Shown here piece by piece: positions 46,014-61,514 of a DNA stretch of 64,000 nucleotides (the stretch's first letter is position 1; each line of letters starts with the position of its first letter). The translations under genes and the position numbers were made by a program. The stretch comes from a candidate division Zixibacteria bacterium SM23_81. GTDB taxonomy: Bacteria > SM23-81. The stretch lies in contig LJUY01000007.1 in NCBI GenBank assembly GCA_001304015.1, positions 10,314-74,313 on the forward strand. Reading direction: 5' to 3'. Under the pieces are notes generated by a model. That model saw only the letters and a program-made list of their open reading frames with translations. It was not told the DNA's origin and did no database searches.

Positions 46014-46484
46014 TTAGAATTCATACAGGATCCGGTGCTGTTCACGTAATCCCGGCTCGTAAATTCGCAATCGAATCGGTCCCATTCCGGTTCGGTACAT
46101 GTATCTGTAAGCTTGTTTCAAGGGTGACAAGTCAAAGATCATCTCGTCGCGAACAAGGGCCTTGCACCTGTCTCCATGGGCATCATGTGAGAGGTATATC
46201 TTCGTCTGTACAGGGTAGGATTCCATGAAGGAAGTGGACCCGTATAGTTTGAAGTCATGTTTTCTGCAGCCTCCGCCGTAGGCAACCTGTAGTCTAAGGA
46301 AATCTCGCTGCAAGCTTGCTTCTTCGATGGTTGCTGCGTCGGTAGCCAGCGTAATGGCATTATGGTCATCGAAGAGGATGATCTCCTTAGCGGCTGGACT
46401 CGGACCCTTCACAGGATTGGAGTGCTGACAACCAGCAACGGCCAGCAACAGCGTGACCAGCAAGTATGCAAGAAGCCGTCTCAT
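46014..46484 (-). CDS. Lipoprotein (NigD C-terminal-like beta-sandwich)
   Basis: Lipobox VAGC; YGGGC..HDF.L...FMESYPVQ...HDAHGDRCKAL; likely start ATG 46484. Confidence 0.65.
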   Translation of the reverse strand: MRRLLAYLLVTLLLAVAGCQHSNPVKGPSPAAKEIILFDDHNAITLATDAATIEEASLQRDFLRLQVAYGGGCRKHDFKLYGSTSFMESYPVQTKIYLSHDAHGDRCKALVRDEMIFDLSPLKQAYRYMYRTGMGPIRLRIYEPGLREQHRILYEF

Positions 46485-46498
46485 ACCGTTGGTCCCAC

Positions 46499-47356
46499 CT
46501 ATGGACAATCAATATCCTCAAGGTTCTCATTCCAGCAATGCCAAATCTCATCATCGAAGTGCGCGGGGTCTTTCACCTGACCATTCTTTACAGTGAGATT
46601 CCATTCGATATTCGTGAGGTTGTTCTGTCCCTTATTGTAGATGTCATAGAACGCATCATAAGGGTCGTCGTTCGTGATTCCATAGTGAATATAGCCGCCG
46701 TTTTCGGGCCCATCGGGGACGATATTGGTGTATCTGATGTCGGCGGTGCTATCCTGCACATCGCGGTGCCACAAGATACCGATATAGGGGATGGGCTCAG
46801 GGTCCTCGGGATCCTTGTTCAAAGTCCAGGTGCCCTCCGTGAGGAACAGATCGGCCTCTCCGAAATACCACAGAAAGTCCTCGTAGTAACCCTCTTTGGA
46901 GATGTACATCTCCCACTCAGTTCCGTTATTATCGATGGATCCCCAGAGCTCTGCGGTGTACTCGACATCATGAACCGTGAAAGCATAAGACCAGACCCAG
47001 GAGCTATCAGGCTGTTGCTCCGGCTGGTGTTTGAAGGACTCCACAAACGCCGCCACGGGGATGGCTGCGTGCACCGTGATGATGATATTCCAGATGCTCA
47101 CATTGAGAGCCGCCCAGCCCCAGTTGTCAAATGAAAGGATGACATCCTGCGGCACATCGCCATTGGGCACGTAGGGACTTTGTCCTATGGGGGTGAAATC
47201 GTCAAAGTCCATGAGAAATGTGGATAATGGCGGGAGCTCTGGAGGTTTTAACGGCTCCGGTTTTGTGGGCTCATCTTCGCATCCAGCGATGAAAAGCACC
47301 ACAGCAGTCAGGGCAAGAAGAAGGTATGGTATGATGGTGCTGCGTATCTTTTTCAT
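46499..47356 (-). CDS. Acidic, Trp-rich lipoprotein of unknown function
   Basis: Lipobox IAGC; likely start ATG 47356 after GGAGG. Confidence 0.75.
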   Translation of the reverse strand: MKKIRSTIIPYLLLALTAVVLFIAGCEDEPTKPEPLKPPELPPLSTFLMDFDDFTPIGQSPYVPNGDVPQDVILSFDNWGWAALNVSIWNIIITVHAAIPVAAFVESFKHQPEQQPDSSWVWSYAFTVHDVEYTAELWGSIDNNGTEWEMYISKEGYYEDFLWYFGEADLFLTEGTWTLNKDPEDPEPIPYIGILWHRDVQDSTADIRYTNIVPDGPENGGYIHYGITNDDPYDAFYDIYNKGQNNLTNIEWNLTVKNGQVKDPAHFDDEIWHCWNENLEDIDCP

Positions 47357-47427
47357 GATCCAAACCCTCCCACAGCTCTTCTGCTGGCTTAAATCGATTA
47401 TTCCCTTGTCCACCCTCCCACAAGCTC

Positions 47428-48438
47428 TCAGAACTCCAGTCCCATGGAGAAGCGATGCACGTCTTCCAGGCGGCCCCAGTCAGCATAGGCGTAATCGATC
47501 TTCACGGCCGTAAATCCTGTCAGGGGGTATCTCAAACCGGCGCCGAGGGTCAAACCCTCCTCGCTGTCTTTCCTCCCCAGGGCCTTGTATCCGCCTCGCA
47601 GGGCTATGGACTCATTCCACATCACCTCGGTGCCCAGGTTAATGGCCTCGTCGTTATCGTTGGGGTGCAGGGCGTCTACGGCCACTGTCCAGCGCATTGG
47701 GCCGGTGTCCACCATATCCATGGCCAGCCCCACCCGGAAGTTCAGGGGCAGGTCCCAGTAATCTGTCTCCATAAAGGCGGTGACGGCCTCGTTGTGGCCG
47801 GTCAGTCCGGGGTCCACGTCATGAAATACTCGTGCGTCCTTGCCTTCCATCCTCATCTTGGTGCCGAAGTTGGCCATGGACATGCCGATGCGCATCTGGT
47901 TGAACCGGGTGATATACAGCGTCCCCACATCAAAGGCGAAACTGGAGGCGCTCATGTGCCAGATGTTCTGCTTGATGTATTTGACATTGAAGCCGAAAGA
48001 AAATCGGTCCGTCAGGCTACGGGCATAGCTTCCCGCAAGGGCAAAATCGCCGGCTTCCATAATCTCGCCGGTCCCTTCGGGGTCATCCACGGTGGTGACC
48101 TCCCATTCTCCATAGTTCAGCGAGGTGATGGAGGCTCCCAGAACGTTGTTCCCCAGGAGGATAACCACGCCGCCGAAGTTGAAATCGGTGTCTGCCAGCC
48201 AATCGGCGTGCATCAACAGAAGCTCGTTGCCCGCAAGACGAGCCAGGCCAGCTGGGTTCCAGTAAAGGGCTGAGGCATCGCTGGCCATGGCAGCGTATGT
48301 TCCGCCCATGGCGGCAGCACGGCAGCCCACCTCGATTTTCAGAAATTGGGCCGCGCTGGTGGCTACTTTTGTGGTGGCCGAAGCCGGGGGCACGGCCACC
48401 AGGATGATCGACACAGCTAACAGGATTACTTTTCGCAT
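47428..48438 (-). CDS. PorV/PorQ-family (UPF0164-like) outer-membrane beta-barrel
   Basis: AQFLKIEVGCRAAAMG, DASALYWNPAGLA, LRGGY, IDYAY, C-terminal Phe. Confidence 0.85.
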   Translation of the reverse strand: MRKVILLAVSIILVAVPPASATTKVATSAAQFLKIEVGCRAAAMGGTYAAMASDASALYWNPAGLARLAGNELLLMHADWLADTDFNFGGVVILLGNNVLGASITSLNYGEWEVTTVDDPEGTGEIMEAGDFALAGSYARSLTDRFSFGFNVKYIKQNIWHMSASSFAFDVGTLYITRFNQMRIGMSMANFGTKMRMEGKDARVFHDVDPGLTGHNEAVTAFMETDYWDLPLNFRVGLAMDMVDTGPMRWTVAVDALHPNDNDEAINLGTEVMWNESIALRGGYKALGRKDSEEGLTLGAGLRYPLTGFTAVKIDYAYADWGRLEDVHRFSMGLEF

Positions 48439-48459
48439 GGCTTGTCCTCCGGTAAGGTC

Positions 48460-51400
48460 CTATTTGATGATGGCGAACTTGCCAATTTTCTCTCCGATGT
48501 CCGATTCGATGTGGTAGATATATATGCCGTAGGCCACATCCATATCGTCCTTGGACAGCAGGTTCCACGATTCAGAGCCGTCCCAGAGATCTTCCTCGTG
48601 TTCGATAACCCGTACCAGGTCCCCGGAGATAGTGAAGATCCGAATGGTGCACTTGCGGGGCAGATGAATGAAGTCGATGCGACGCTCTCCGCGGCCGTGG
48701 CCGGGAGGGATGTCTGGGGGCAGCGTTTCCCATTTGGCCGCGCTGACATATGGATTGGGCACCACCTTGATCTGATCCAGCAAGTTTTCGGTGGCGCTGG
48801 CCGTGCTGGCCATTTGAGTGGTGAAGGTGAACTGATCCTCAGTCGTCAGCGGCTCGGCGATCTCCACGAAGGCCACATCCCCCGCCTGGGGGTCGATTTT
48901 GGTCACGATGGTGTCAACGGGACCGATGATAAAGCTGTCGGGTTGGAAAATCCAGATGGTGTCTATCACCACCGAGTCCTCTGGGGCTGTGAAGGTGATT
49001 TCCCAGGTGCCCTTGGGCGTGGTGCCCTGGTAGATCACCGGCAGAACCTGATCGCGGGAGGTAACGTAGGAATCGGGGTCAAAGTCGCCGTCTTTGTCGA
49101 AGAAGATGAAGTCGCTCTGCACATCTTCGCTGACGTTCCAGACCTGGAATTTAACCGGTTGCGGTTGGACGATCTGGGAGGTGTCAACCACTGTATCGAA
49201 GAATCGGATCTCGTAGTCAGCAGGATAAGGGACACCGCCGAATGGATAGAGCTGTACCGACATATCGTAGTTACAGTCACCCACAAGCCACGCGTGCAGG
49301 CTATCGATGGCATCGATATTGTCTATCTCGTCTATGGTCACATCCAGCCCGTCAAAGATGACCTGCTGTCCCTCCAGGCTGGCACTATTCTCTATTATAA
49401 CCGAATCTCCAAGACTTTCGTCCAGAACTGAGAAGGTCATCCAGGCGGCCGTGGTGTCGTCGAAGGTGATCCGATATGAGTGGCCGGTGATCTCCTGCGG
49501 ATCTAAGACCTCGATAGATATGGCGGCGTCGCCGTTACCCTGATGGGTCAGTTGCAGGATCTCCGGGGCCACGTAGCCCAGGGGTTTGGCGTTGGGGACC
49601 ACGGAGACGACGTTGGGCTCGGTGATGAGGTCCGGATTCTTGATGGCCTTGGCGCACTCCACAGGGGGAATCCCATCGACAACACTGCCAATGTCGTAAG
49701 AACAGATGGCGTAATAGTAACGGATCCCGTTGGTTACGTTGCGATCCATCCAGGAATAGGCCAAGCCGGTATCGTCGCCCATGTAATAATGGACCCCTGA
49801 GCTTTTAGGATCGGTAGCCTGCTTTCCCAGGTGGTCCAGGGGATGTGAACCTAGGACGCTGTCCACCAGATCAAACTGGGCTATGGGCTCCCAGTAAACC
49901 TGCACCCCTCGGTTATCTGTGATGGGATTGCCCCAGGTGGCTCCCCGGTCTGTGCTGCGGTATATGGTGTAGCCCTCGAAGTCAGGTCCCAGCAGGGGGT
50001 CCACCGATTTCTCAGCAATATTGTCCCAATATAAAGTTACCTCTCCGTCCCCGGCCACAGCGGTCAGGTGCGGCGTGAAGGGAGCCTTGGTGAATTGGTA
50101 ACCCAACTCGTAGATGGTCTGAGCTATTTCGGCGTTGTTCCACAGGTCCACGCTATCGGCCCCCACGATGATGGCGATGGACATGGGCTGCGATTCCCCT
50201 GGCTGTAGGGAGAAATAGCCCGAGCCGAAGAAGAAGACGTTGTCACCTACGGGAAAGGTATCCGAGAAGCTACCCGGGGTCAGGGCGATCCAGCCCGTGG
50301 AATCGTTGCCGGCATAGTAGGGACTGTTGTAATCATAGCTCATCATGCTGGTCATGCCCAGGTAGTCACTCTCGTCGATGTCTCGGATGCCGAAGTCGGG
50401 CTCGCCTTGGGAGGGTTGTCCGTCACCTTCTCCTTCGTCCCCGGTTCCAGGAATGCCATCGGCTCCAATATCGTCTGATAGCTCGTCCACATCGTTGGTG
50501 TCCTGCTGGGCCTCCTCGTCGGTGAGGTCCCAGTCGCCGTCCTCATCTTGGTCGTTATATTGCGATTCGTCGACCAGCCCGTCGCCGTCGTTGTCGATGC
50601 CGTCATGATCGTTATAAGGGCTCTCCAGATATTTGAATCCGATCCAGCCCACATCCCCCGGGAAGTTGGGGCTGGTATTATCAGTGTCCCAGCTATACAC
50701 AAAGTTGTTCTCTTTCTCGAAGTCGACCCCGTCGTCGGCGAAGTCGGGATAACCGCCCACATCCAAATCTACAAAATAGCCAGCCACCACCTTATCCAGA
50801 GTCCTATAGCCCATGTTTTTGATCTCGTAGACGAAGAAGATGATGTCCTCGGCGATGGCCGCTGCCCATTGGTAGCCCCGGGAGCTGATCTCGATGGCCA
50901 GCCCCTGGAGATCATCGTCATCGGGATAATAATCATAGATGCCGGCGGCGTTGCCGCCGCCCTCGCCGGCGTTGTTGGCCTGATCGTCCATCACGAAGTA
51001 ACTCTCCTGATCGGCGGTGATAACTCCTTCGCCAAACTGACCGGGCCACACCTCCCACTCCGGTGGCCAGGTTGTGGGATCATCGCTCATGGCCGGACTC
51101 TCGTTGGGCAGCGGTGCGAAGAAGCCGGGGAGGGGCTCAAGATCATCATCGCCGCCGTCTAGTATGCCCTCAATGGAGCAGTGGACAGTGTCCCACTCGG
51201 CATTCACGCTGTCCCAGCGGACGAACTCGGCAGCGACGATGGGCCCAAACTCGTAGCCGTATTCATGGCCGCTGTAGGCCGGCCACTCGATGCGCGGCGC
51301 ATAGCGACCGATGGAGCCGAAGTTGGTGAACCGAGTCCTGACCCTGTTGCCGGCGTGAATGCCCGCCTTCCGGTCGGGATTCACCTGCATGCTCTTGAGA

Positions 51401-51537
51401 ACAGTTTCCGTCTGCTCTGCTGACATGTACTTCTGTCCTCGCTGACCGGCCCAAGTCTGTCCGAAGGGCAGAAATTGGAGACAGACCAGGACGGTGATCA
51501 ACAGAACAGAGAAGATCAAGAGTTTAAATCTTTTCAT
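48460..51537 (-). CDS. Large acidic secreted protein with Ca-binding-like repeats, Fn3-like domain and variant CTD
   Basis: Signal peptide; TNFGSIG, IEWP, DGIDNDGDGLVDE; LTAVAGDGEVTLYWD...DFEGY; C-terminal IKVVPNPY...GIYIYHI...GKFAIIK. Confidence 0.85.
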   Translation of the reverse strand: MKRFKLLIFSVLLITVLVCLQFLPFGQTWAGQRGQKYMSAEQTETVLKSMQVNPDRKAGIHAGNRVRTRFTNFGSIGRYAPRIEWPAYSGHEYGYEFGPIVAAEFVRWDSVNAEWDTVHCSIEGILDGGDDDLEPLPGFFAPLPNESPAMSDDPTTWPPEWEVWPGQFGEGVITADQESYFVMDDQANNAGEGGGNAAGIYDYYPDDDDLQGLAIEISSRGYQWAAAIAEDIIFFVYEIKNMGYRTLDKVVAGYFVDLDVGGYPDFADDGVDFEKENNFVYSWDTDNTSPNFPGDVGWIGFKYLESPYNDHDGIDNDGDGLVDESQYNDQDEDGDWDLTDEEAQQDTNDVDELSDDIGADGIPGTGDEGEGDGQPSQGEPDFGIRDIDESDYLGMTSMMSYDYNSPYYAGNDSTGWIALTPGSFSDTFPVGDNVFFFGSGYFSLQPGESQPMSIAIIVGADSVDLWNNAEIAQTIYELGYQFTKAPFTPHLTAVAGDGEVTLYWDNIAEKSVDPLLGPDFEGYTIYRSTDRGATWGNPITDNRGVQVYWEPIAQFDLVDSVLGSHPLDHLGKQATDPKSSGVHYYMGDDTGLAYSWMDRNVTNGIRYYYAICSYDIGSVVDGIPPVECAKAIKNPDLITEPNVVSVVPNAKPLGYVAPEILQLTHQGNGDAAISIEVLDPQEITGHSYRITFDDTTAAWMTFSVLDESLGDSVIIENSASLEGQQVIFDGLDVTIDEIDNIDAIDSLHAWLVGDCNYDMSVQLYPFGGVPYPADYEIRFFDTVVDTSQIVQPQPVKFQVWNVSEDVQSDFIFFDKDGDFDPDSYVTSRDQVLPVIYQGTTPKGTWEITFTAPEDSVVIDTIWIFQPDSFIIGPVDTIVTKIDPQAGDVAFVEIAEPLTTEDQFTFTTQMASTASATENLLDQIKVVPNPYVSAAKWETLPPDIPPGHGRGERRIDFIHLPRKCTIRIFTISGDLVRVIEHEEDLWDGSESWNLLSKDDMDVAYGIYIYHIESDIGEKIGKFAIIK

Positions 51538-51642
51538 CTTCTCCCTCCCTACTAAGTTTTAGAGGTATATGAAGGTACAGTTTTTGCTTATAATTTTTCC
51601 TCTAACCTTACCGTGAGCTTGATAGGTTTTGGCAGGATTTCA

Positions 51643-53340
51643 TTACCGAAATAACAACATCTTTTTTGTGCAGTATAGATTGCCCCTTTCCAAGCAGTAC
51701 AGATACAGTCCACTGGCCACTGCCCTCCCCGCGTCGTCGCAGCCGTCCCAGGTGACGAACCCCCAACCGTCCTCAACAGGTTGAATCTGCAGGTGCCGGA
51801 CCACCTGCCCCAAGACATTGTAGACCCGGAGGGAAGCGCCGGAGAGGTCCCCAGGAGGCAGCGAGAAGGGAATTTTGGTGGAGGTGTTAAAAGGGTTGGG
51901 GTAGTTTTGGCCTAACGAGAAAGCGAGTGGTACCCCTTCAGGCAGATATGCCTCAGCTATGTGCGTGACCACGCTCTGATGCTCGTAGATGGTCTGGGCC
52001 ACCTCGGCGTTCTGCCACAGATCAATGCTATCGGCTCCTACGACGATGGCGATAGACATGGGCTGGGACTGTCCCGGTTCTAGGGAGAAATATCCCGATC
52101 CGAAGAAGAAGACGTTATCGCCTATAGGAAAGGTCTGCGAAAAACTTCCTGGAGTTAGGGCAATCCAAACCGCGGGGTCGTTGCCAGCATAGTAGGGGCT
52201 ATTGTAGTCGTAGCTCATCATGCTGGTCAATCCCAGCTGGTCGTTTTCGTCCAGATCCCGGATCTCGAAATCCGGTTCCCCTAAAGTGGGCCAGCTATCT
52301 CCTTCGCCTTCGTCGTTTGTTTCAGGAATTCCATCAGCCCCCACATCGTCGGAGAGCTGATCCCAATCATTGGGGTCCTGCTGGGCCTCCTCGTCGGTGA
52401 GATCCCAGTCGCCATCATTATCCAGGCCGTCGCTCTGCGACTCGTCGACCATCCCGTCGCCGTCGTTGTCGATGCCGTCGTCATCGTTGTAAGGACTCTC
52501 CAGATATTTGAAGCCCACCCAGCCCACGTCACCGGTCCAGTTGGGCGAATGGTTATCCGTATCCCAGCTGTAGACAAGATTGTTCGCCCAGTCGAAGTCA
52601 ACTCCATCATCGTGGAAATCGGGATAGCCGCCAACGTCCAGGTCCACGAAATAACCGGCCACAACTTTATCCAGAGTTTTGTACCCGATGTTTTTAATCT
52701 TGTAAACGAAGAAGATCATATCCTCGGCGATGGCTGCAGCCCACTGGTAGCCCCGGGAGCTGATCTCAATGGCCAGGCCCTGGAGGGTGTCCGTTTCGGG
52801 ATAATAGTCATACATGGGATCAGAGTTTCCTCCGCCCGGACCAGCGTTGCTAGGCTGATCGCTCATCACGAAGTAGCTCTCCTGGTCGGCAGTGATCACC
52901 CCGGGTCCGAACTGCCCCGGCCATTCTGTCCACTCCAGGGGCCAGGTGCTGGGGTCGTCGCTCATGGCCGGGCTCTCGTTCGGTAGAGAGGCGAAGTAAC
53001 CAGGATAGGGCTCAAGATCGTCATCCCCACCGTCCAGGATACCCTCGATGGTGCAATGGATAGTCTCACTATCTCTGATGAACTCAGCGGCGATGATAGG
53101 CCCAAGCTCGTATCCGTATTCGTGACCGCTGTAAGCGGGCCACTCGATGCGCGGCGGGTAGCGCCCGATGGAGCCGAAGTTCGTGAAGCGAGTCCTGATC
53201 GAGTTTCCGTCGTGAATGCCCGCCTTCCGGTCGGGATTGACCTGAGAAATCGCCAGATCGGGGCTAGACAAGAGCAAACCTGCCAGAACGGCCAGCAGCA
53301 GAGCAAGTGAGAACACTTGTCTGGCTCCTGTCAATTTCAT
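51643..53340 (-). CDS. Paralog of the N-terminal half of the 1025-aa protein fused to a canonical T9SS-type CTD
   Basis: Near-identical blocks from QVNPDRKAGIH to AQTIYE, then QNYPNPFN...GLYLY...KMLLFR. Confidence 0.87.
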   Translation of the reverse strand: MKLTGARQVFSLALLLAVLAGLLLSSPDLAISQVNPDRKAGIHDGNSIRTRFTNFGSIGRYPPRIEWPAYSGHEYGYELGPIIAAEFIRDSETIHCTIEGILDGGDDDLEPYPGYFASLPNESPAMSDDPSTWPLEWTEWPGQFGPGVITADQESYFVMSDQPSNAGPGGGNSDPMYDYYPETDTLQGLAIEISSRGYQWAAAIAEDMIFFVYKIKNIGYKTLDKVVAGYFVDLDVGGYPDFHDDGVDFDWANNLVYSWDTDNHSPNWTGDVGWVGFKYLESPYNDDDGIDNDGDGMVDESQSDGLDNDGDWDLTDEEAQQDPNDWDQLSDDVGADGIPETNDEGEGDSWPTLGEPDFEIRDLDENDQLGLTSMMSYDYNSPYYAGNDPAVWIALTPGSFSQTFPIGDNVFFFGSGYFSLEPGQSQPMSIAIVVGADSIDLWQNAEVAQTIYEHQSVVTHIAEAYLPEGVPLAFSLGQNYPNPFNTSTKIPFSLPPGDLSGASLRVYNVLGQVVRHLQIQPVEDGWGFVTWDGCDDAGRAVASGLYLYCLERGNLYCTKKMLLFR

Positions 53341-53385
53341 CCACCTCCCTTTTTTAAAAAGGGATGAGGAGATTTATTCCATCTC

Positions 53386-56046
53386 CTAAAATTCCACCTC
53401 AAACCCCACCAGAACTTTTCGGGGTTCGCTGTAGAAGTGAGGTCTGTTGATGTAATCAAGCCGCAGCTCTTCTCCCCCTTCTTCGACCAGATTCTCGTAT
53501 GGATTAAGATTGTAGGTAGACCGACCGGTGCTGTCCCATACTATGATCTCGTTCTTGGCGTCGAAGAGGTTGTATACCCTCACGAAAATGGCAGTGCGCA
53601 GGCTACGGCCGTACACGTTTTTCAATATGAAATCCTTACGAGCGTTGAGGTCGAAGTTCAACTGGGCGGGCTTTCGCTCGCTGTTCTCCTCACCGGTCCG
53701 GTGTCCTTTGGAATCCAAGGGGGTATACGGGAGGCCGCTGCCGTACTTGCCGATGATACCCATGCCCCAATTGTCCGGCTGGCTGAGAGTCACGGACATA
53801 TTCACAGTGTGGGTTTGATCCCAGTCCAAAGGCACCACCTGTTTTTCCGGCTGGCGCCTCAAGTTGGCCGCCCAGTCGTCATGCTCGGCGTCGGGATCGG
53901 AGGCATTGCCCTCGGCCACCTGAAAGGTGTAGTTAATATCGAAGCCCACCAGCCCCCTCAGCCGCTTGGTCAACTCAACGGTTACGCCCTTGACGTTTCC
54001 ATAGTCTCTGTTGACGTATTGAAAATAGCTCTCTGCCGCGGTGAGCTTGAACCTCTTGGTGGCGATGAGGTTGGTGATGTCCTTGTAAAAACCGGTGACG
54101 CTCAGGGCCAGATCCTCGATCATCTCCTGACGGAATCCCACCTCGTAGATGACCGTCTTTTGAGGTTTCAACTCTCCGGGGGCAATCTCTTTGTCCCTGA
54201 GCTCCAGCTCAGAGTTGGTGTAGAGGTAATTGTAGGTGGGAATCTGGAAGAAGTGCCCATAGGAGAAGTACAGCACTCCCTTGTCGGAGATGGGGTGAGC
54301 CACCCCCAGGCGGGGACTCAGCTGGCTGCTGGCTTTCAAGGTGGCGATTGAATCTTCCTCGGGGAAGTCTTCGGTTCCATCCCTTCCCAGAGCAAACGTC
54401 CAGGCATCGGGGCTAAAATAATCGAAGCGGAGTCCAGCGTTGATAATCATGTCCTGCAGCTCGATCTTGTCCTGGATATAGGAAGCTAACTCATAAGGAC
54501 TGTGCCTGTAGTGGTTGAAGAAAAAGCGGCTGTCCCCGCTGATGTAGCTTTTAAAGGTAGGATCGATTTCAAACAGAGAGAGATCGTGATCGTTGAACTC
54601 AAATCCCGTCTTCATCTGGTGGGCTTGATTCACCTGGCTGGTCAGGTCGAAATTGTAGGTCCGACTCACAGTCCTCTGCCGGAACCACCAGCTGAGGATG
54701 CTGTTCTTCCAGAAGTTCTGGCTCTGGTAATCCCTGGATTCCGCCTGGTCGTAGCGAACGTCGTTGTAATCATCCCATAGGAAATATCGGTACTGCTGCT
54801 CCATGTAAGAAAGTTTTAGCGAGTAAAAAGTGCTCGGGCTGAGAGTATGGGTCAGGGAGAAGTGGCCTCGGTCGCTCTGACGCCTGCGGTTGTAGGTGCT
54901 CTCGGGTAGATATTTCCAGCGGTGGTCGTATGTTTTGTATTCCCGACGATACCCCAGGTAGCCGGCGGTGATTTTGATGGCATCTGTAAGGCGCCAGGTC
55001 ATCTTTCCGCTGAAATTTTTCCTCAGGTCTGGCTTCATAGGTACCCGTTCCATGAAATCGGCTCTGGTGGTGTCAGGCAGGATGTTCTCGAACTCATCTC
55101 GAATGGCCTTCTGGGAGTACTTCTTGAAGCCGTAAAGCCATCCATCGGTGTCCTCATATCGGCCCGATAGGAAAAAGCTGAATTGATCGCCCAAAAAGGG
55201 CAAGGGGCCGCCCAGGGTTCCCTGGACATTGAATTCGTTGAAGGGCTCGATATCGTCGATCTCCGGAAAGATGTCGGTGTGGTCGCTGACGTGGTCCCCG
55301 GTATAGGCGGCGATTCGTCCAGAGAGTTTCTGGCCTCCCTCTTTGGTGACGATGTTGACGATGCCCGACATAGCGTTCCCATATTCGGCGTTGAAGGTCC
55401 CGCTGACAGCCACCATCTCCTCGATGGCTCCGCTGTTGAGGTTCAGGTTGTCCATCTGCCCGGAGTACGGGTTCTTCACCAGGATGCCATCCACCATGTA
55501 GGCCACCTCTTCCTTACGTCCCCCTCGCATATGGGTGTTGCCAGAGATGTCTGTGGTCACCGCGGCCTGGGTTTCCAGGATATCATCCACCTCCTCCACG
55601 GGCATCTCCTGGATCTCCAGTGCGGTGGTGATGTCAGAGCTGGAGGTGACGTCCATACGGACCAGAGGACGCTCTGCCACCACAGTGATCACCTCGGCCA
55701 CGTCCAGAACAGTCTCCCTGAGGGAGAAGTTCACAGAGCTGGTCAGGTCGACGTTCACCTGGACGTCTGTCTGCTCCATGGGTGAATAGCCGATCATCTC
55801 GGCTCTGAGAGTGTAGATCCCGGCGGGCACGTTGAGAATGAAGTAAGTGCCGTTCAGGTCGGTGGACGCACCCAGGATGGTGCCCTGGACGAGCACATTC
55901 ACTCCCGGCAGCGGCCTTCCGTTGGCCGCATCGGTCACCGTTCCGGCGATCTTTCCAGTCGTGCCGGCCATCGAAATGGTTCCGCCTGCCAGGCTGATGA
56001 GGACTACCAAACCCATCAGGTTAATGAGTCTTACCACACGTCTCAT
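53386..56046 (-). CDS. TonB-dependent receptor with N-terminal carboxypeptidase-regulatory-like domain
   Basis: GTTGKIAGTV, plug HMRGGR...YMVDG, FNAEYGNAMSGIVNIVTKEG, SPRLG, YNLFD, PR...GFEVEF. Confidence 0.93.
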   Translation of the reverse strand: MRRVVRLINLMGLVVLISLAGGTISMAGTTGKIAGTVTDAANGRPLPGVNVLVQGTILGASTDLNGTYFILNVPAGIYTLRAEMIGYSPMEQTDVQVNVDLTSSVNFSLRETVLDVAEVITVVAERPLVRMDVTSSSDITTALEIQEMPVEEVDDILETQAAVTTDISGNTHMRGGRKEEVAYMVDGILVKNPYSGQMDNLNLNSGAIEEMVAVSGTFNAEYGNAMSGIVNIVTKEGGQKLSGRIAAYTGDHVSDHTDIFPEIDDIEPFNEFNVQGTLGGPLPFLGDQFSFFLSGRYEDTDGWLYGFKKYSQKAIRDEFENILPDTTRADFMERVPMKPDLRKNFSGKMTWRLTDAIKITAGYLGYRREYKTYDHRWKYLPESTYNRRRQSDRGHFSLTHTLSPSTFYSLKLSYMEQQYRYFLWDDYNDVRYDQAESRDYQSQNFWKNSILSWWFRQRTVSRTYNFDLTSQVNQAHQMKTGFEFNDHDLSLFEIDPTFKSYISGDSRFFFNHYRHSPYELASYIQDKIELQDMIINAGLRFDYFSPDAWTFALGRDGTEDFPEEDSIATLKASSQLSPRLGVAHPISDKGVLYFSYGHFFQIPTYNYLYTNSELELRDKEIAPGELKPQKTVIYEVGFRQEMIEDLALSVTGFYKDITNLIATKRFKLTAAESYFQYVNRDYGNVKGVTVELTKRLRGLVGFDINYTFQVAEGNASDPDAEHDDWAANLRRQPEKQVVPLDWDQTHTVNMSVTLSQPDNWGMGIIGKYGSGLPYTPLDSKGHRTGEENSERKPAQLNFDLNARKDFILKNVYGRSLRTAIFVRVYNLFDAKNEIIVWDSTGRSTYNLNPYENLVEEGGEELRLDYINRPHFYSEPRKVLVGFEVEF

Positions 56047-56131
56047 GGCGACTTCCCTCCCCAGTATTTATGTAGATGGTGTTCTCGATAGCCAGTGGTG
56101 TCGGTTAGAGAAATTTTACAAAGTCAAGCAA

Positions 56132-56160
56132 ATAATAAGTTCAACAACCTCCATTGTCAA
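56132..56160 (-). promoter_or_regulatory. Near-consensus sigma70 promoter of the TBDR operon
   Basis: TTGACA-17 nt-TATTAT on the minus strand, ~85 nt upstream of the ATG at 56046. Confidence 0.75.
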
Positions 56161-56265
56161 GTGTTTAATTTGGGGACTCAAAAGATTATCAAAGAGGTCG
56201 ATCAGGCTGCCGGGGAGTTCATCGAAAAGTGCCCCAAGTTCAGGCATGGGAGGAAAGAAATTGAC

Positions 56266-56294
56266 TTGCATTCAGGATTGGCTTGCATTATGTT
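56266..56294 (+). promoter_or_regulatory. Possible sigma70 promoter of the xdh-like operon
   Basis: TTGCAT-17 nt-TATGTT upstream of AAGGAG RBS and ATG 56356. Confidence 0.5.
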
Positions 56295-56355
56295 ATTTTT
56301 CGATTTAGAAATGCTGGAAATGTCGAAAAATCTATGTGTTGTTAAAGGAGTCGCT

Positions 56356-57210
56356 ATGTCAGCTTTGCGCGATTTCAAAAGGCCGAGTTCTGTCGCCGAG
56401 GCCGTAGCCATGGTTCGAGAGGGGCCCGGAAGGGGAGGTTTCATTGCCGGCGGCACGACCCTGGGATTGGCTCGGATGTTACCTTATGATTTTCTGGTGG
56501 ACATCACCGGCGTGGGATTAAACAAGCTTCGAAAGGTCGGCGATGGGATCCGTATCGGAGCTGCAGCTACCATCCAACAGTTGGCTACCTCCCCCCTGCT
56601 TCATAATTCCGGCCTCGAGTTCTTGATCCAGGCGGCCCTTTCTGTGGCCACACGGCAGATCAGAAACATGGCCACAGTGGGTGGCGACCTAGTTTCGGGA
56701 TACCCCGTGGCCGATTTGCCGGCAGTATTTTTAGTTCTGGACGCACAACTATCCCTGACCGGCTCCGACCGCATGGAACTTTCGCTGCGTGATTTTTTCG
56801 ATTCGAGAGTTTCAGGGAGCTTGAATGGCGCGCTGGTCACCGAGATCTCCTTTCCGGTCCCGCCTCAGGACAGCCGGGGCTTCTTCGTCAAGTTCGCCCG
56901 CACCGAGAATGACGTTGCCCTCATTGACCTGGCCTGCTTGGCGAGCTTGGAAGGGCGTCACTTTAAGTGGGTCCGAGTTGCCCTGGGTTCCACAGTCCTG
57001 CGGCCATCGCGCTTGCTGGCTCTCGAGGATTTTCTCAAGGGCAAGCCGGCGGAGGAGCAGGTGCTGGCTCAAGCCGCGAAGCTGGCCACTAAGGACCTGT
57101 CCATTCTAGACAATATTAGGGGCAGTCGGCCTTATCGTATGGAGATGATTCAGGTTTTGCTTCGCAGAGCTCTGCTGAACTGTGCCCAGAGGGGAGGTGG
57201 GGATAAGTGA
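56356..57210 (+). CDS. Xanthine-dehydrogenase-family FAD-binding subunit (CoxM/YgfM-like)
   Basis: RPSSVAEA, IAGGT, IGAAAT, QIRNMATVGG, RGSRPYR. Start ATG 56356 after AAGGAG; the track start at 56095 is over-extended. Confidence 0.9.
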   Translation: MSALRDFKRPSSVAEAVAMVREGPGRGGFIAGGTTLGLARMLPYDFLVDITGVGLNKLRKVGDGIRIGAAATIQQLATSPLLHNSGLEFLIQAALSVATRQIRNMATVGGDLVSGYPVADLPAVFLVLDAQLSLTGSDRMELSLRDFFDSRVSGSLNGALVTEISFPVPPQDSRGFFVKFARTENDVALIDLACLASLEGRHFKWVRVALGSTVLRPSRLLALEDFLKGKPAEEQVLAQAAKLATKDLSILDNIRGSRPYRMEMIQVLLRRALLNCAQRGGGDK

Positions 57211-57686
57211 AGATCCATGTCACCATCAATGGGGTCCCAACGGATGTGAAGGTTGCCCCCAACGAAAAGCTCCTGGATATGCTCAGGCGGATGGGCTACT
57301 ATGGAGTCAAATTCGGCTGCGGTCGTGGTGAGTGCGGAGTCTGCACGGTTATACTGGATGGCCAGGCGGTTATGGCCTGCCTTACCTTTGCAGCCCAGGC
57401 CCATAACAAGTCGGTAATCACCGTGGAGGGGATCGGCCAGCCAGGCAATCTCCATCTCATTCAGGAGGCCATTCTAGACCATGGGGCCGCCCAGTGCGGC
57501 TACTGCACACCTGGCATCGTCTGCTCGGCCAAAGCCCTCCTGGACGAAAATCCGCATCCCACCGAGGTTCAGGTTCGAGAGGCCCTGAAAGGCAATCTGT
57601 GTCGTTGCACCGGATATCAGAAATACGTGGAAGCCATCCTAGATGCAGCTGAAAAGTTGAGGGAAACGTCAGGGCGCTTGGAGTGA
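57207..57686 (+). CDS. Xanthine-dehydrogenase-family 2Fe-2S subunit (CoxS-like)
   Basis: GCGRGECGVCTV...C, QCGYCTPG, GNLCRCTGY. Confidence 0.94.
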   Translation: MKIHVTINGVPTDVKVAPNEKLLDMLRRMGYYGVKFGCGRGECGVCTVILDGQAVMACLTFAAQAHNKSVITVEGIGQPGNLHLIQEAILDHGAAQCGYCTPGIVCSAKALLDENPHPTEVQVREALKGNLCRCTGYQKYVEAILDAAEKLRETSGRLE

Positions 57687-57726
57687 AGGTTTCTGACCAG
57701 GGAAAGATATCGGGGGATAGGGGCTA

Positions 57727-59097
57727 ATGGCTCAGGCAGGCAGAGTAGCTTTGTGGAGTTTCTTTCTCCTGTCAATTTCGATCAGCTCTCTGAGAGGGGA
57801 TGAAGCTTCGCAGAAGCCCTCCGACTGGGAAAGGCGACTGGAGATGCTTCGCGCTGTACCTTATGTGGGTTTCTCGGAAGTTACCCCCAATGAGCAGGAG
57901 GATGGCGTTGTATTCTATGATCCGAAGAAGGCTTACCTTGGTTATAACTTATACTGCCTGCAATCAACCGGCGAGATTTTTCTGATAGATATGCATGGCC
58001 AGGCAATCCACCGGTGGACGTATTCTCCACAGACGAAGAGCTTCGGTTCTGGACACGCCATAATGTTGGAAAACGGCGATGTACTGGTCATCAAAGAGTT
58101 TCTTGAGCTGCTTCGGCTCAATTGGAATTCGAAGCTGGTCTGGAAAAAAGCCTTGGCGGCACATCATGACGTTGCACATGCGCCAGATAGTTCTTTTTAC
58201 GTGATTGCGCGGTCTTTTAAAAGACATAGGGGATTGAGAGTGATATTTCCCACAATAGTGCATCTCAAAACAGACGGGAAAGAAATTGACAGGTGGTCCG
58301 CTTACGACCATATGACTGAGATGAGGAACACTCTCGACACCAGCTCCTTTCTGGATATGCACCTCGACAGTGCCCTTTCTGGCCGGTCTCAGAAATTTGG
58401 GGTATCGGAAATAATCAAGAGGATTGGGACGGGCCCTGGACAGTATTACGATTACTTTCACCTAAATGCCATCACGGTGATTCCACCCACCGTTTTAGGA
58501 GAACAAGACTTGCGGTTCCGTCGCGGTAATTTACTCATTTGTCTCCGGAATGTGAATCAGATAGCGGTGTTAGAAAAGGACACATACCGCATTCTATGGT
58601 CCTGGGGTGAGGGTGAGCTTGAATGGCCACACCATCCCACGATGTTGGAAAACGGTCACATACTTATCTTCGACAACGGAGTCCAGCGCAGATATTCTCG
58701 GGTGGTGGAGCTAGATCCCCTGACAGAGGCCATTGTTTGGGAGTACGTGGCCGAGCAGCCGGAGGATTTTTACTCTCATTTTAGAGGTTCGGCCCAACGG
58801 CTACCCAACGGCAACACGCTCATCTGTGAAAGCGATAGGGCTCGTGTTTTTGAGGTGACAGAGCAGGGGGAAGTAGTGTGGTTTTGGCGGAATCCTGCCA
58901 CCGAAGAAGTGGAAGGGAAGTGGGAAAGACTGAGTTCGATACCGAGACAGTCGTCTGGAGCTAGGCGCCGGGAAGCTGTCTATAGGATGTTACGCATTCC
59001 CACAGCACAGGTAGACAGATTGATGAATGGGTGGTGGTGGAAGTGGGGTTTTGCAGATGAAAAAGAAGTTCACATGAATGTGCTACGCGCTGAGTGA
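57727..59097 (+). CDS. Secreted arylsulfotransferase (ASST)-like beta-propeller
   Basis: Signal peptide; LEMLRAVPYV, AHHD, DYFHLNAI, WPHHP, LIFDNG, GSAQRLPNGNTLI. Confidence 0.78.
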   Translation: MAQAGRVALWSFFLLSISISSLRGDEASQKPSDWERRLEMLRAVPYVGFSEVTPNEQEDGVVFYDPKKAYLGYNLYCLQSTGEIFLIDMHGQAIHRWTYSPQTKSFGSGHAIMLENGDVLVIKEFLELLRLNWNSKLVWKKALAAHHDVAHAPDSSFYVIARSFKRHRGLRVIFPTIVHLKTDGKEIDRWSAYDHMTEMRNTLDTSSFLDMHLDSALSGRSQKFGVSEIIKRIGTGPGQYYDYFHLNAITVIPPTVLGEQDLRFRRGNLLICLRNVNQIAVLEKDTYRILWSWGEGELEWPHHPTMLENGHILIFDNGVQRRYSRVVELDPLTEAIVWEYVAEQPEDFYSHFRGSAQRLPNGNTLICESDRARVFEVTEQGEVVWFWRNPATEEVEGKWERLSSIPRQSSGARRREAVYRMLRIPTAQVDRLMNGWWWKWGFADEKEVHMNVLRAE

Positions 59098-59192
59098 TTT
59101 GAGAATAGCGGATAGGTGAATTACGAACTTGAGGTTTTCACCCATAGCGTATGACGAATTACATGAGGCGATAATGGAGGAAGCGAGGTGAG

Positions 59193-61514
59193 ATGAAAAG
59201 ACCCAAGTATCGAAGCGTGGGCCAAAATCAGCGCAAGGTGGATGGCGAGGCTCTGGTAACTGGGCAAGCGCGGTATGTGGACGACATCGAACTCAGAGGC
59301 ATGCTGTACGGGAAGATTCTGCGTAGCCCCCACGCCCATGCCAGGATCCTGGAGATCGACGCAGACGAGGCCCGAGGCCTGCCCGGGGTTCATGCTGTGC
59401 TAACGCACCACAACGTGCCGCGAATCCAGTATACCACCGCGGGTCAAGGTGCCCCGGAACCCTCGCCCAAGGACACCTTCGTGCTGGATGAAAAGGTGCG
59501 CTACGTGGGCGATAGCGTGGCTGCCGTGGCCGCCGAGACAGCTCAGATTGCCGAGGAGGCTTTAAAGAAAATCAAGGTGAGGTGGGAGGTTTTGCCTGCC
59601 GTGCTGGATATGGAACAGGCCATGACCCCGGATGCTCCCAGAATTCATGAAATGCCTTCGGCAAATGAGATCTCCAATCCGGAGAAAAATATCGCCGCTC
59701 AGGTGGAGGTAACCGATGGGGACCCGGAGAGGGGTTTCGCCGAGGCGGATCTTGTGGTGGAGAACCACTACAGAGCTGGACGCGTTCACGCCAGCCATAC
59801 CGAACCGCATATCTGCATCACCTGCCTGGATGAGGCGGGCAGGCTTGTGGTGCGAACCTCCACACAGGTGCCCTTTCACGTCCGTCGGATTATCGCCCCC
59901 CTAGTGAACCTGCCCATCGGCAAGATTCGGGTGATCAAGCCCCGAATCGGCGGTGGATTTGGAGCCAAGCAGGAGGTGCTCCTGGAGCCCATCTGTGCCC
60001 TGTTGACCCTGAAAACGGGTCGCCCGGTGCGCATTCGGCTTACCCGGGAGGAGGAGTTCATCTCGTCAAGGACACGACATGCTCAGATTCTGCGGAGCAA
60101 AGTTGGCGCTAAAAGCGACGGCACCATCACTGCCACTGAGCTTGAGGTTCTGGCCGATACCGGGGCATATGGCTCTCATGCCTTAACGGTCCAGTGCAAC
60201 ACGGGGAGCAAATCGCTGCCCTTGTATCGTACGCATCAGTACCGGAAGGGTGTGAACAACGTCCACTTCAAGGCCACGGCAGTCTATACGAACCTTCCCG
60301 TGGCCGGAGCCATCCGTGGTTACGGAGCGCCCCAGGGATTTTTCGCCCTGGACAGCACCTTGGACGAGATGGCCCACAAGCTGAAGATGGACCCCATCGA
60401 TTTTCGTTTGAAGAATCTTGTGCGCAAGGGAGATTCTCCAGCCCTCTTGGAGAAACTGGGTGAGGGGAGAGAGGGAGTCAAGCAGATTTTGAAGAGCTGT
60501 GGAGTGCGAGAGTGCATCAAGCGGGGCATGGCCGAGATAGAATGGCAACAAAAGAGGGCTCGAAAAAACGGCGGAGTGGTGAGAAGAGGAGTGGGGATGG
60601 CTGTCCTGCAGCAGGGCTCCGGTATTCCAGGCATCGACATGGGGGCGGTGACCATTAAATTGAACGAAGATGGTTCCTTCAACCTAATGACCGGGGCTAC
60701 AGATTTGGGTACCGGCTCAGACACCATCCTGGCCCAGATCGCTGCCGAGGTGCTGGGCACCGCTGCCGATAAGTGTCACGTCTTCTCTTCCGACACTGAC
60801 CTGACCCCCTACGATACCGGAGCCTACGCCTCCAGCACTACTTACATAACCGGCATGGCTGCCAAAAAAGCCGCCGAGGAGATACGCAGGAAGGTTCTAG
60901 CGCGAGCCGTTCGAATGCTCTCGGAGAAAAGGGGAGATCTGACATTGGAGAACGGCCGGGTGAAAGGCCGCAAGAAGAGCATTTCCCTGGGGGAGGTCTG
61001 CGCCGACGCGCTTTACGAACACGATCAGGAACAAATTATGGCTACTGCCTCTCACATTTCTTACGATTGCCCGCCCCCCTTCGCAGCCCACTTCGCCGAC
61101 GTGGCTGTAGACACCGAGACGGGTCAGGTTAGGGTTCTCAAATATGTGGCAGCAGTAGACTGCGGCACGGCCATAAATCCCCAGTTGGCCGAGGGCCAAA
61201 CCTTGGGGGGGATCCATATGGGGTTAGGATATGCCCTGAGCGAGGAATACCAGTTCGACGATAGGGGTCGTCTGATGAATCCCAGGTTTCTGGATTATAA
61301 AATCTTGTCCGCTTCCGACATGCCAGAGATTAAGGTGATCTTGGTGCCCACCTTCGAGCCCACTGGACCCTTCGGTGCCAAGTCCGTCTCGGAGATTCCC
61401 ACCAACGGCCCTGCTCCAGCTATCGGCAACGCAATCTTCCATGCCTTAGGAGTGCGCCTGCGCGAGGTGCCGTTTACGCCAGAAAGGGTACTCAAGGCTT
61501 TACGTAATGCGTGA
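59193..61514 (+). CDS. Xanthine-dehydrogenase-family molybdopterin-binding subunit (XdhD-like)
   Basis: TGQARYVDD, RSPHAHA, STQVP, IGGGFGAKQE, AIRGYGAPQG, YASSTTY, FGAKSVSEIP. Confidence 0.93.
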   Translation: MKRPKYRSVGQNQRKVDGEALVTGQARYVDDIELRGMLYGKILRSPHAHARILEIDADEARGLPGVHAVLTHHNVPRIQYTTAGQGAPEPSPKDTFVLDEKVRYVGDSVAAVAAETAQIAEEALKKIKVRWEVLPAVLDMEQAMTPDAPRIHEMPSANEISNPEKNIAAQVEVTDGDPERGFAEADLVVENHYRAGRVHASHTEPHICITCLDEAGRLVVRTSTQVPFHVRRIIAPLVNLPIGKIRVIKPRIGGGFGAKQEVLLEPICALLTLKTGRPVRIRLTREEEFISSRTRHAQILRSKVGAKSDGTITATELEVLADTGAYGSHALTVQCNTGSKSLPLYRTHQYRKGVNNVHFKATAVYTNLPVAGAIRGYGAPQGFFALDSTLDEMAHKLKMDPIDFRLKNLVRKGDSPALLEKLGEGREGVKQILKSCGVRECIKRGMAEIEWQQKRARKNGGVVRRGVGMAVLQQGSGIPGIDMGAVTIKLNEDGSFNLMTGATDLGTGSDTILAQIAAEVLGTAADKCHVFSSDTDLTPYDTGAYASSTTYITGMAAKKAAEEIRRKVLARAVRMLSEKRGDLTLENGRVKGRKKSISLGEVCADALYEHDQEQIMATASHISYDCPPPFAAHFADVAVDTETGQVRVLKYVAAVDCGTAINPQLAEGQTLGGIHMGLGYALSEEYQFDDRGRLMNPRFLDYKILSASDMPEIKVILVPTFEPTGPFGAKSVSEIPTNGPAPAIGNAIFHALGVRLREVPFTPERVLKALRNA

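Follow-up and report, generated by a model that had tools for sequence, protein, structure and literature searches.

A conserved module of a TonB-dependent receptor, a type IX secretion-tailed protein and a PorV-family barrel as a candidate SusD-less uptake cassette

A window of 64,000 nucleotides from candidate division Zixibacteria bacterium SM23_81, an inhabitant of marine sediment (contig LJUY01000007.1, positions 10,314 to 74,313) carries on its minus strand a gene for a TonB-dependent receptor (TBDR), followed by genes for two related acidic proteins that we call A and B, an outer-membrane barrel of the PorV/PorQ family and two putative lipoproteins. The genes for the TBDR, protein B and the barrel recur together in many other genomes, and the three proteins are inherited as a module. 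On balance, we favour reading the locus as one copy of a modular, SusD-less uptake cassette of the Fibrobacterota–Chlorobiota–Bacteroidota (FCB) group in which B would be tethered by type IX secretion system (T9SS) parts. An original prediction, made from the DNA letters alone, had singled out the six genes as a nutrient-capture locus in which a secreted protein held by its own barrel serves the TBDR. Its observation is confirmed; its interpretation is supported in the core and partly supported overall.

Conservation and co-inheritance of the three genes

Protein B (1025 residues; 48460..51537, minus strand, as are all six genes) is the conserved core partner in the cassette. It has no match over cut-off in Pfam or NCBIfam, and its clusters in the protein Atlas are named 'hypothetical protein' only. 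Scoring of 8000 candidates yielded 720 relatives at E≤1e-3, and at least 594 species genomes encode one (594 of 600 pattern stretches, from one-genome-per-species contigs). Among the 120 relatives listed, most have about 900–1130 residues and every named one is 'hypothetical'; they come from KSB1, Fidelibacterota, Calditrichota, WOR-3, Stahlbacteria and others. All seven genomes of the window organism's small phylum contain matches to the family.

The six window proteins were compared by tblastn with a synteny set of 80 kept loci. In 75 of the 80, the gene directly upstream of B encodes a TBDR relative; of the remainder, three begin at B, at a contig end, and two are ordered B-B-TBDR-barrel. 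The PorV-like barrel lies directly downstream of B, also in 75 of 80, and all five misses are cut at a contig end. Synteny across these loci rules out chance adjacency of the three genes. By record title, the loci belong to Ignavibacteriota (21), Bacteroidota-labelled metagenome-assembled genomes (17), Calditrichota (11), Fidelibacterota (10), Rhodothermota (7), Gemmatimonadota (2) and others, the labels of metagenome-assembled genomes being possibly imprecise. The proposed conservation of the locus thus holds for the triplet of TBDR, 'VVPNPY'-tailed protein and PorV-like barrel across FCB lineages, but not for its other members, which are confined to close relatives or local: no relative of the 304-residue lipoprotein occurs at any of the 80 loci, a relative of the 164-residue lipoprotein occurs at one, away from the cassette there, and the short form represented by A was seen in close relatives only. 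Judged by this synteny, the conserved unit is TBDR, B and barrel only, with A and the two lipoproteins as lineage-specific local additions.

The trees of the three genes are congruent, as had been anticipated. Distances from the protein trees of 58 cassettes gave Mantel correlations of 0.91 for TBDR and B, 0.82 for B and barrel and 0.88 for TBDR and barrel, values that are partly expected from shared species history, for which they are uncontrolled. Moreover, cassettes a and b, both in locus L009, do not mix partners: for a, the nearest neighbours of TBDR, B and barrel alike are those of L001/L002, and for b they are those of L024. TBDR, B and barrel are inherited as a module, paralog by paralog.

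The 3.07-Mb genome of the window organism carries four or five cassettes. The last 110 residues of B match five places in it, which correspond to five tailed proteins; four are encoded immediately upstream of a PorV paralog, and the fifth shares its locus with a TBDR-barrel pair. Open reading frame (ORF) maps show complete sets of TBDR, tailed protein and barrel on contigs C7 and C9, with tailed proteins of 1099 and 991 residues. On C73 the tailed protein and barrel are truncated by the contig end. The fifth locus (C29:10098-21480, L083) encodes a 633-residue tailed protein, two proteins with an ordinary T9SS C-terminal domain (CTD), a 484-residue lipoprotein and then an adjacent TBDR and barrel; one of the two ordinary CTD proteins is an LVIVD beta-propeller. 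The cassette TBDRs are each other's closest paralogs, and the three closest to the window's TBDR are all cassette-borne.

The TBDR itself (886 residues; 53386..56046) has a signal peptide, a CarboxypepD_reg N-domain, a Plug and a 22-strand-type barrel, with Pfam scores all above cut-off (PF13715, 71.6 bits; PF07715, 35.1; PF00593, 116.3). Against the SusC/RagA model TIGR04056 it scores 51.4 bits where the cut-off is 368.25, and the match covers only positions 2–206 of 981. Its other subfamily matches are to haem- and siderophore-type receptors, weak and all far below cut-off. The missing SusD/RagB neighbour that had been remarked on is borne out: none of the six locus proteins matches a SusD family in Pfam, and PF07980 and PF14322 have no match in the genome (92.6% complete), the Bacteroides thetaiotaomicron control being positive.

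Of the secretion genes that the original prediction named for a search outside the window, those for SprA and PorU are present. SprA scores 799 bits, PorU scores 751.6 bits (cut-off 420) and is followed by two PorV genes, and a PorZ-like gene scores 206 bits, under the cut-off of 260. There are 24 PorV-family matches, 14 of them over cut-off, and 88 further places match the CTD of protein A. By these family matches, a complete T9SS is encoded elsewhere in the genome.

Two further loci of this genome resemble parts of the picture. A second PorU-like gene (C9:102660-108044, a 1776-residue frame) scores 279.6 and 111.5 bits on the PorU model, below cut-off, and is followed by its own PorV paralog, which suggests that several large CTD proteins of this genome have private barrels as partners. 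At C72:3336-7296, a shorter, 699-residue TBDR-like gene is separated by about 1 kb from a weak PorV-family barrel, whose 71 bits are below cut-off; the pair may be a degenerate or different type of cassette.

Protein B, its tail and the barrel

Three regions can be distinguished in protein B: an N-terminal domain, a stalk and a variant tail. The N-terminal domain (residues ~47–477; 50107..51399), modelled on paralog A, is a beta-supersandwich of the galactose-mutarotase-like type, with a fold match over most of the domain. In structure, the domain shared by A and B is closest to the N-terminal domains of dextran dextrinase, glucodextranase and glucoamylase (9ju0, Z 20.2, 258 residues aligned, root-mean-square deviation (RMSD) 3.4; 1ulv, Z 20.1, 242 aligned, RMSD 3.5; 1lf6, Z 19.9, 229 aligned, RMSD 2.7); a Foldseek comparison gave E 1.4e-7. 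Further matches are to glycoside hydrolase family GH94, GH116 and GH65 enzymes, to aldose epimerases (Z 12–14) and to GH174 fucanases (Z 12–13). The likeness to the N-domains of GH15, GH94, GH65 and GH116 enzymes and to aldose 1-epimerases is one of fold (Z 18–20, 229–274 aligned, RMSD 2.7–4.0). Unlike those enzymes, B has no catalytic (alpha/alpha)6 domain after the supersandwich, it shares only 8–12% identity with them, and it carries an acidic insert of about 90 residues. A fold held in common with sugar enzymes shows no function. The domain for which no function could at first be named thus has a known fold, yet matches no characterised family.

The acidic insert (~312–400) interrupts the supersandwich of B and contains DxDxDG-type motifs; it would probably bind calcium. 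Invariant acidic and polar residues of the N-domain include E178, D185, R220, Q223 and D231. The stalk (residues ~483–905; 48823..50091) consists, in the structure model, of an FN3 domain and further beta-sandwich domains; the model of residues 471–1025 has a mean predicted local distance difference test (pLDDT) score of 86.3, and FN3 structures match model residues 13–181 with Z ~10.

The tail (residues 916–1025; 48463..48792) adopts the T9SS CTD fold in the model. Its closest structures are the CTD of PorZ (Z 11.3, 92 aligned, RMSD 2.2, 25% identity) and that of PorU (Z 9.5, 85 aligned, RMSD 2.7). It falls under every CTD sequence model: 14.0 bits against 23 for TIGR04183, 12.9 against 27 for PF18962 and 17.0 against 27 for CHU_C, with NF052228 as the top weak match. 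The tail is, as modelled, a divergent CTD by fold only. What separates it from type A is that about 25 residues (W..E...GRGERR) are inserted as a conserved loop between strands one and two. Across 55 sequences V925, V926, P927, P929 and Y930 are invariant, and the VVPNPY and GRGERR motifs are nearly so. A profile built from 59 tails matched 283 cluster representatives at E≤1e-30, 4589 at 1e-10 and 12507 at 1e-3 among 1.84 billion, the weaker tiers probably including ordinary CTDs; in 147 of the best 150 the match reaches the last residue. The three top profile matches (P0121-P0123) are proteins of 2200–2400 residues with 12–15 internal repeats of a tail-like, FlgD_ig-type domain, and these repeats are not C-terminal tails.

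Protein A (565 residues; 51643..53340) couples the same supersandwich and acidic insert to an ordinary tail. TIGR04183 (cut-off 23) scores 23.0 on the whole protein and 28.3 on the tail alone, which places the tail among type-A CTDs, while PF18962 gives 24.2, below its cut-off of 27. The structure model has a pLDDT of 79.5 and a predicted template modelling score of 0.73. Identity between A and B is 80% over 431 residues, and each has an isoelectric point of 4.05; their tails are 28% identical, with a gap in A. On sequence comparison, A is a recent, lineage-specific partial duplicate of B set on an ordinary type-A CTD. It would be expected to use the general PorV/PorU route and to end released or linked to lipopolysaccharide.

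The barrel (336 residues; 47428..48438) belongs to the PorV/PorQ family, matching NF033709 with 225.8 bits (cut-off 90) over positions 1–326 of 326. The TBDR (by Pfam), the CTD of A and this barrel, which were first read from the letters, lie over a family cut-off. The barrel is below the equivalog cut-offs for PorV (NF033710, 86.4 against 250) and PorQ (NF033711, 102 against 220), and no TIGR04131 or PorP/SprF model is among the NCBIfam matches of B or the barrel at E≤0.01. We built a tree from 18 barrel paralogs of the genome and 11 cassette barrels of other loci. A branch with SH-like approximate likelihood ratio support of 93 sets the 16 tail-adjacent barrels apart on one side, a division that none of 500 label shuffles matched; the two PorV genes next to PorU and a further 11 paralogs fall outside this group.

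Moreover, tail and barrel are predicted to bind each other, which had been named as a test of the idea. Barrel residues 23–336 and B residues 905–1025, each with its own alignment, were modelled together alongside three controls. The complex scored 0.91, 0.92 and 0.91 in its runs, and the best of the three controls 0.00; the mark set for this score is reached by 58 of 80 solved complexes and by 2 of 110 mismatched pairs. The runs share at least 85% of contacts, and the partner pLDDT is at least 73. Predicted contacts involve tail residues 924–929, 966–975, 995–1011 and 1016–1025, and the N-terminal segment and loops of the barrel. The barrel is thus predicted to be the cognate holder of B's tail.

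Proposed role of the cassette and its alternatives

Polysaccharide uptake in Bacteroidota is understood through SusC and SusD. Sediments, hot springs and the deep ocean have important degraders in Ignavibacteria, Rhodothermia, Calditrichota, Marinimicrobia/Fidelibacterota, KSB1, Gemmatimonadota and their relatives, many of which carry TBDR-rich loci where SusD genes are few or absent. The conserved triad would supply a core marker for annotating polysaccharide utilization loci (PULs) outside Bacteroidia. It would also bring a new class of tail under the cargo-carrier logic of the T9SS, and physically connect the machineries of secretion and import.

We propose the following mechanism. Sec would take B to the periplasm, and the T9SS encoded elsewhere in the genome would carry it over the outer membrane. 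Its divergent CTD would be left uncut and docked extracellularly on its own PorV-like barrel, in the manner of PorU on PorV and PorZ on PorQ. B would thereby be held at the surface, its FN3/beta-sandwich stalk presenting the supersandwich with the acidic, probably calcium-binding insert. The substrate that the supersandwich would capture, in most genomes most likely fragments of glycans, would be passed to the co-encoded TBDR, which would import it, powered by TonB. The cassette would then do for its receptor the job that SusD and the surface glycan-binding lipoproteins do for SusC, with T9SS parts replacing the lipid anchors.

The parallel with SusC/SusD (RagA/RagB) is a close one in several respects. 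In both, a TBDR with a CarboxypepD_reg domain is co-encoded with a surface partner; the cassettes are multiplied within a genome and, in other genomes, lie among carbohydrate-active enzymes (CAZymes); and, as in SusC/SusD 'utilisomes', capture at the surface followed by TonB-driven import is proposed. The differences lie in the parts. The partner is not a SusD-fold TPR lipoprotein, no SusD match exists in locus or genome, and the receptor scores 51 bits against the 368 required by the SusC model. B has about 1000 residues, is all-beta and T9SS-tailed, and has a barrel of its own.

Neighbouring genes in other genomes point to glycans. Flanking ORFs were chosen mechanically, as the longest ORF within 700 bp of the cassette; 37 of 64 upstream ORFs were scanned (13 on the other strand and 14 short or cut were dropped) and 62 of 71 downstream (4 on the other strand, 4 short and 1 second-cassette TBDR were dropped). 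The 37 co-oriented upstream ORFs matched Por_Secre_tail (29), CBM9 (11), CBM_4_9 (3) and LacI (2). The 62 downstream ORFs matched Por_Secre_tail (19), Rotamase_2 (14), Laminin_G_3 (8) and SBP_bac_1 (7), and among CAZyme families GH16 (6), GH94 (4), GH3 (3) and GH9 (2). With such CAZyme, carbohydrate-binding and CTD neighbours, many cassettes occupy PUL-like loci. Separately, the Rotamase_2 matches are PPIC-type, SurA-like peptidyl-prolyl isomerases, which are the next co-oriented ORF after the barrel in 14 of 62 loci and may be a fourth, semi-conserved member of the cassette in some lineages.

The arrangement may already stand in a published gene table. The xylan locus of Rhodothermus marinus is listed as a GH43-CBM6 protein with a CTD, Xyn10A with a CTD, the TBDR Rmar_1070, then 1071, a hypothetical protein with a Por sorting domain, 1072, a hypothetical protein, and 1073, a hypothetical protein with a CTD; 1068–1071 are predicted to be co-transcribed (PMC6987092). 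By that gene table, Rmar_1070-1072 appears to have the same layout as the triad. Rmar_1070-1072 is named in no other paper that we found, and the openly accessible main texts searched held no description of the triad. The available text of the Caldithrix genome paper (PMC5317091) has no mention of SusC, SusD or T9SS, and that of a 2026 review of glycoside transporters (PMC13543919) none of PorV, T9SS, Ignavibacteria, Rhodothermus or Marinimicrobia; as far as their text goes, two papers on T9SS carriers (PMC10202324 and PMC10994853) do not cover the triad. Each part of the triad is of a known kind (TBDR, T9SS cargo, PorV-type carrier); for their combination no description was found.

The pairing of one cargo with one dedicated barrel is itself already known, from PorU-PorV, PorZ-PorQ and type-B CTDs with SprF (PMC10202324). 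According to the same source, type-B CTD cargo require cognate PorP/SprF barrels encoded alongside, the CTD of PorU remains on PorV and that of PorZ on PorQ, and cognate PorV-like barrels may shield CTDs from cleavage. The cassette resembles SprB-SprF and PG1035-PorP in that the cargo gene adjoins the gene for a private FadL/PorV-like barrel, and type-B CTDs too are thought to stay uncleaved and to anchor their cargo on the barrel (PMC10202324). Unlike in those systems, the tail of B is not type B (CHU_C, 17 bits against 27), the barrel is of the PorV/PorQ family, a TBDR is the invariant third member and B is not of a gliding adhesin family. With PorU-PorV and PorZ-PorQ the cassette shares a CTD-fold tail kept on a PorV-family barrel (a retention that we propose for B), the structural closeness of B's tail to the PorZ and PorU CTDs and, in the same genome, the adjacency of porU and porV. 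Those pairs, however, are single-copy machinery with peptidase or propeller domains, whereas B is a multi-copy supersandwich/FN3 protein tied to TBDRs.

Going beyond the window's copy, we put forward, tentatively and short of a firm preference, that such cassettes are a widespread alternative to SusCD outside Bacteroidia: a TBDR with a T9SS-exported capture or lid subunit of about 1000 residues, held non-covalently on a dedicated PorV-family barrel by an uncleaved 'VVPNPY...GRGERR' CTD. If this were true, type IX secretion would be linked directly to nutrient import, and the tail and its barrel would make a fourth CTD/carrier pairing.

Several observations weigh against a surface-tethered uptake cassette, beside the species history that underlies part of the Mantel correlations. 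First, the N-domain of B is 34–48% identical across loci with different CAZymes, and may be too uniform for a substrate-specific binder; it could instead bind a conserved partner or ligand. Second, no CAZyme was found among the scanned neighbours of the window's own cassette, so a glycan substrate is not indicated for that copy. Third, the tailed protein on C29 has no supersandwich and lies three genes away from the TBDR-barrel pair, which implies that the capture domain is not obligatory. Finally, substrate CTDs bound to PorV loops have already been solved (PMC10994853), and because of these similar complexes the tail-barrel score may reflect the model's memory of them rather than binding by this pair.

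The alternative that survives best, although we consider it doubtful, is that the barrel is a private T9SS carrier for B, in the style of SprF for SprB, and perhaps for neighbouring CTD proteins too. B would then be a lone adhesin, binding protein or scaffold, and the TBDR would be co-regulated without being a physical partner. Cargo-adjacent cognate barrels are established for type-B CTDs (PMC10202324), the interface that was modelled, and supported, is that of tail and barrel, and many flanking genes encode ordinary CTDs, all of which suits this explanation. What speaks for the TBDR as a partner is that it is no less constant than the barrel (75 of 80 loci, each miss explained), that the tree of B is tracked better by the TBDR (r 0.91) than by the barrel (0.82), and that all four own-genome cassettes visible whole include a TBDR.

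It is unlikely that B is instead an enzyme, a glycan-active or other hydrolase or lyase, that processes substrate at the surface before import by the TBDR. Catalytic folds do occur among the structural matches, namely those of aldose epimerases and GH174 fucanases at Z 12–14 and 12–13, and many acidic and polar residues, E178 and D231 among them, are invariant. The top matches (Z 18–20), on the other hand, are non-catalytic N-domains of GH15, GH94 and GH116 enzymes, no enzyme family in Pfam or NCBIfam matches in sequence, and the same B family stands beside quite different CAZymes, which argues against a substrate-specific catalyst.

Slightly less probable still is that the window's cassette imports something other than a glycan (peptides, a metal chelate or a cofactor, for example), so that the glycan context seen elsewhere would not apply to this copy. 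The lack of a nearby CAZyme is in keeping with such a substrate, as are the weak haem- and siderophore-type matches of the TBDR, far below cut-off, and the acidic insert, which could bind cations. Yet the closest orthologous cassettes lie in CAZyme and carbohydrate-binding contexts, and the fold of the N-domain is typical of sugar-handling proteins.

We regard it as very improbable that B and its barrel are housekeeping parts of the T9SS attachment complex, analogous to PorZ-PorQ and only incidentally next to a TBDR: B's tail is most like the PorZ CTD, with NF052228 as its top weak match, and the barrel fits the PorQ model (102 bits) better than the PorV model (86), but the genome has a separate PorU-PorV-PorV locus and a PorZ-like gene, it holds four or five cassettes with a TBDR always present where visible, and B has no propeller domains in the models. 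Identity of B with PorU or PorZ is ruled out by the family scores and by the separate PorU and PorZ-like genes.

The window's locus and its surroundings

The six ORFs of the window's cassette (46014–56046) run head to tail. As first described, this co-oriented set stands behind a putative, near-consensus, sigma-70-like promoter sequence, TTGACA-17-TATTAT (56132..56160, minus strand; 11 of 12 positions matching), 86 nt upstream of the TBDR ATG. A ribosome-binding stretch, GGGGAGGGAAG, lies immediately 5' of that ATG. The region holds eight promoter-like sites, of which this is the best, where shuffles lead one to expect 6.9, so the site taken alone is within chance; it is consistent with an operon. 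The gap between B and the barrel gene is 21 bp, as had been noted, from coordinates 48460 and 48438.

The tandem arrangement of A and B is not an assembly artefact. The TBDR/A and A/B junctions are both spanned, with no differences, by independent metagenome contigs, which come from runs of other studies and cover the stretch. A contig of run X5 joins 46462 to 51703 and so omits 5240 bases (lipoprotein, barrel and B); with just 20 letters on one side, we treat this joint as unreliable and probably spurious.

Both putative lipoproteins were recognized by a lipobox read by eye. The first (304 residues; 46499..47413; lipobox LFIAGC) is acidic, with a likely start at MKKIRST..., and has no Pfam or NCBIfam family over cut-off; a contig end of the same genome (C81:1-366) holds a partial copy with 78% identity over 124 residues. 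The second (164 residues; 46014..46508; lipobox LAVAGC) likewise has no family over cut-off. Its weak NigD1/NigD2-like match reaches 22.1 bits against a cut-off of 60, which rules out membership of the NigD family.

The neighbours of the window's cassette are TPR, LarA-like and FG-GAP/CTD proteins. Divergent from the cassette promoter, on the plus strand of window positions 56095-61514, lie genes for an arylsulfotransferase-family protein (57727-59097) and a molybdopterin-binding subunit of the xanthine-dehydrogenase type (59193-61514). On the minus strand between 20646 and 42376, there are at least seven more ORFs with a type-A CTD at their end (matches at C22 30962, 33484, 36089, 41977, 45784, 50034 and 51046). 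The type-A CTD ORFs of the window include an FG-GAP protein (40724-42376) and an ORF at 35465-37693 that has a weak Peptidase_M23 match of 26.9 bits, just below the cut-off of 28.7.

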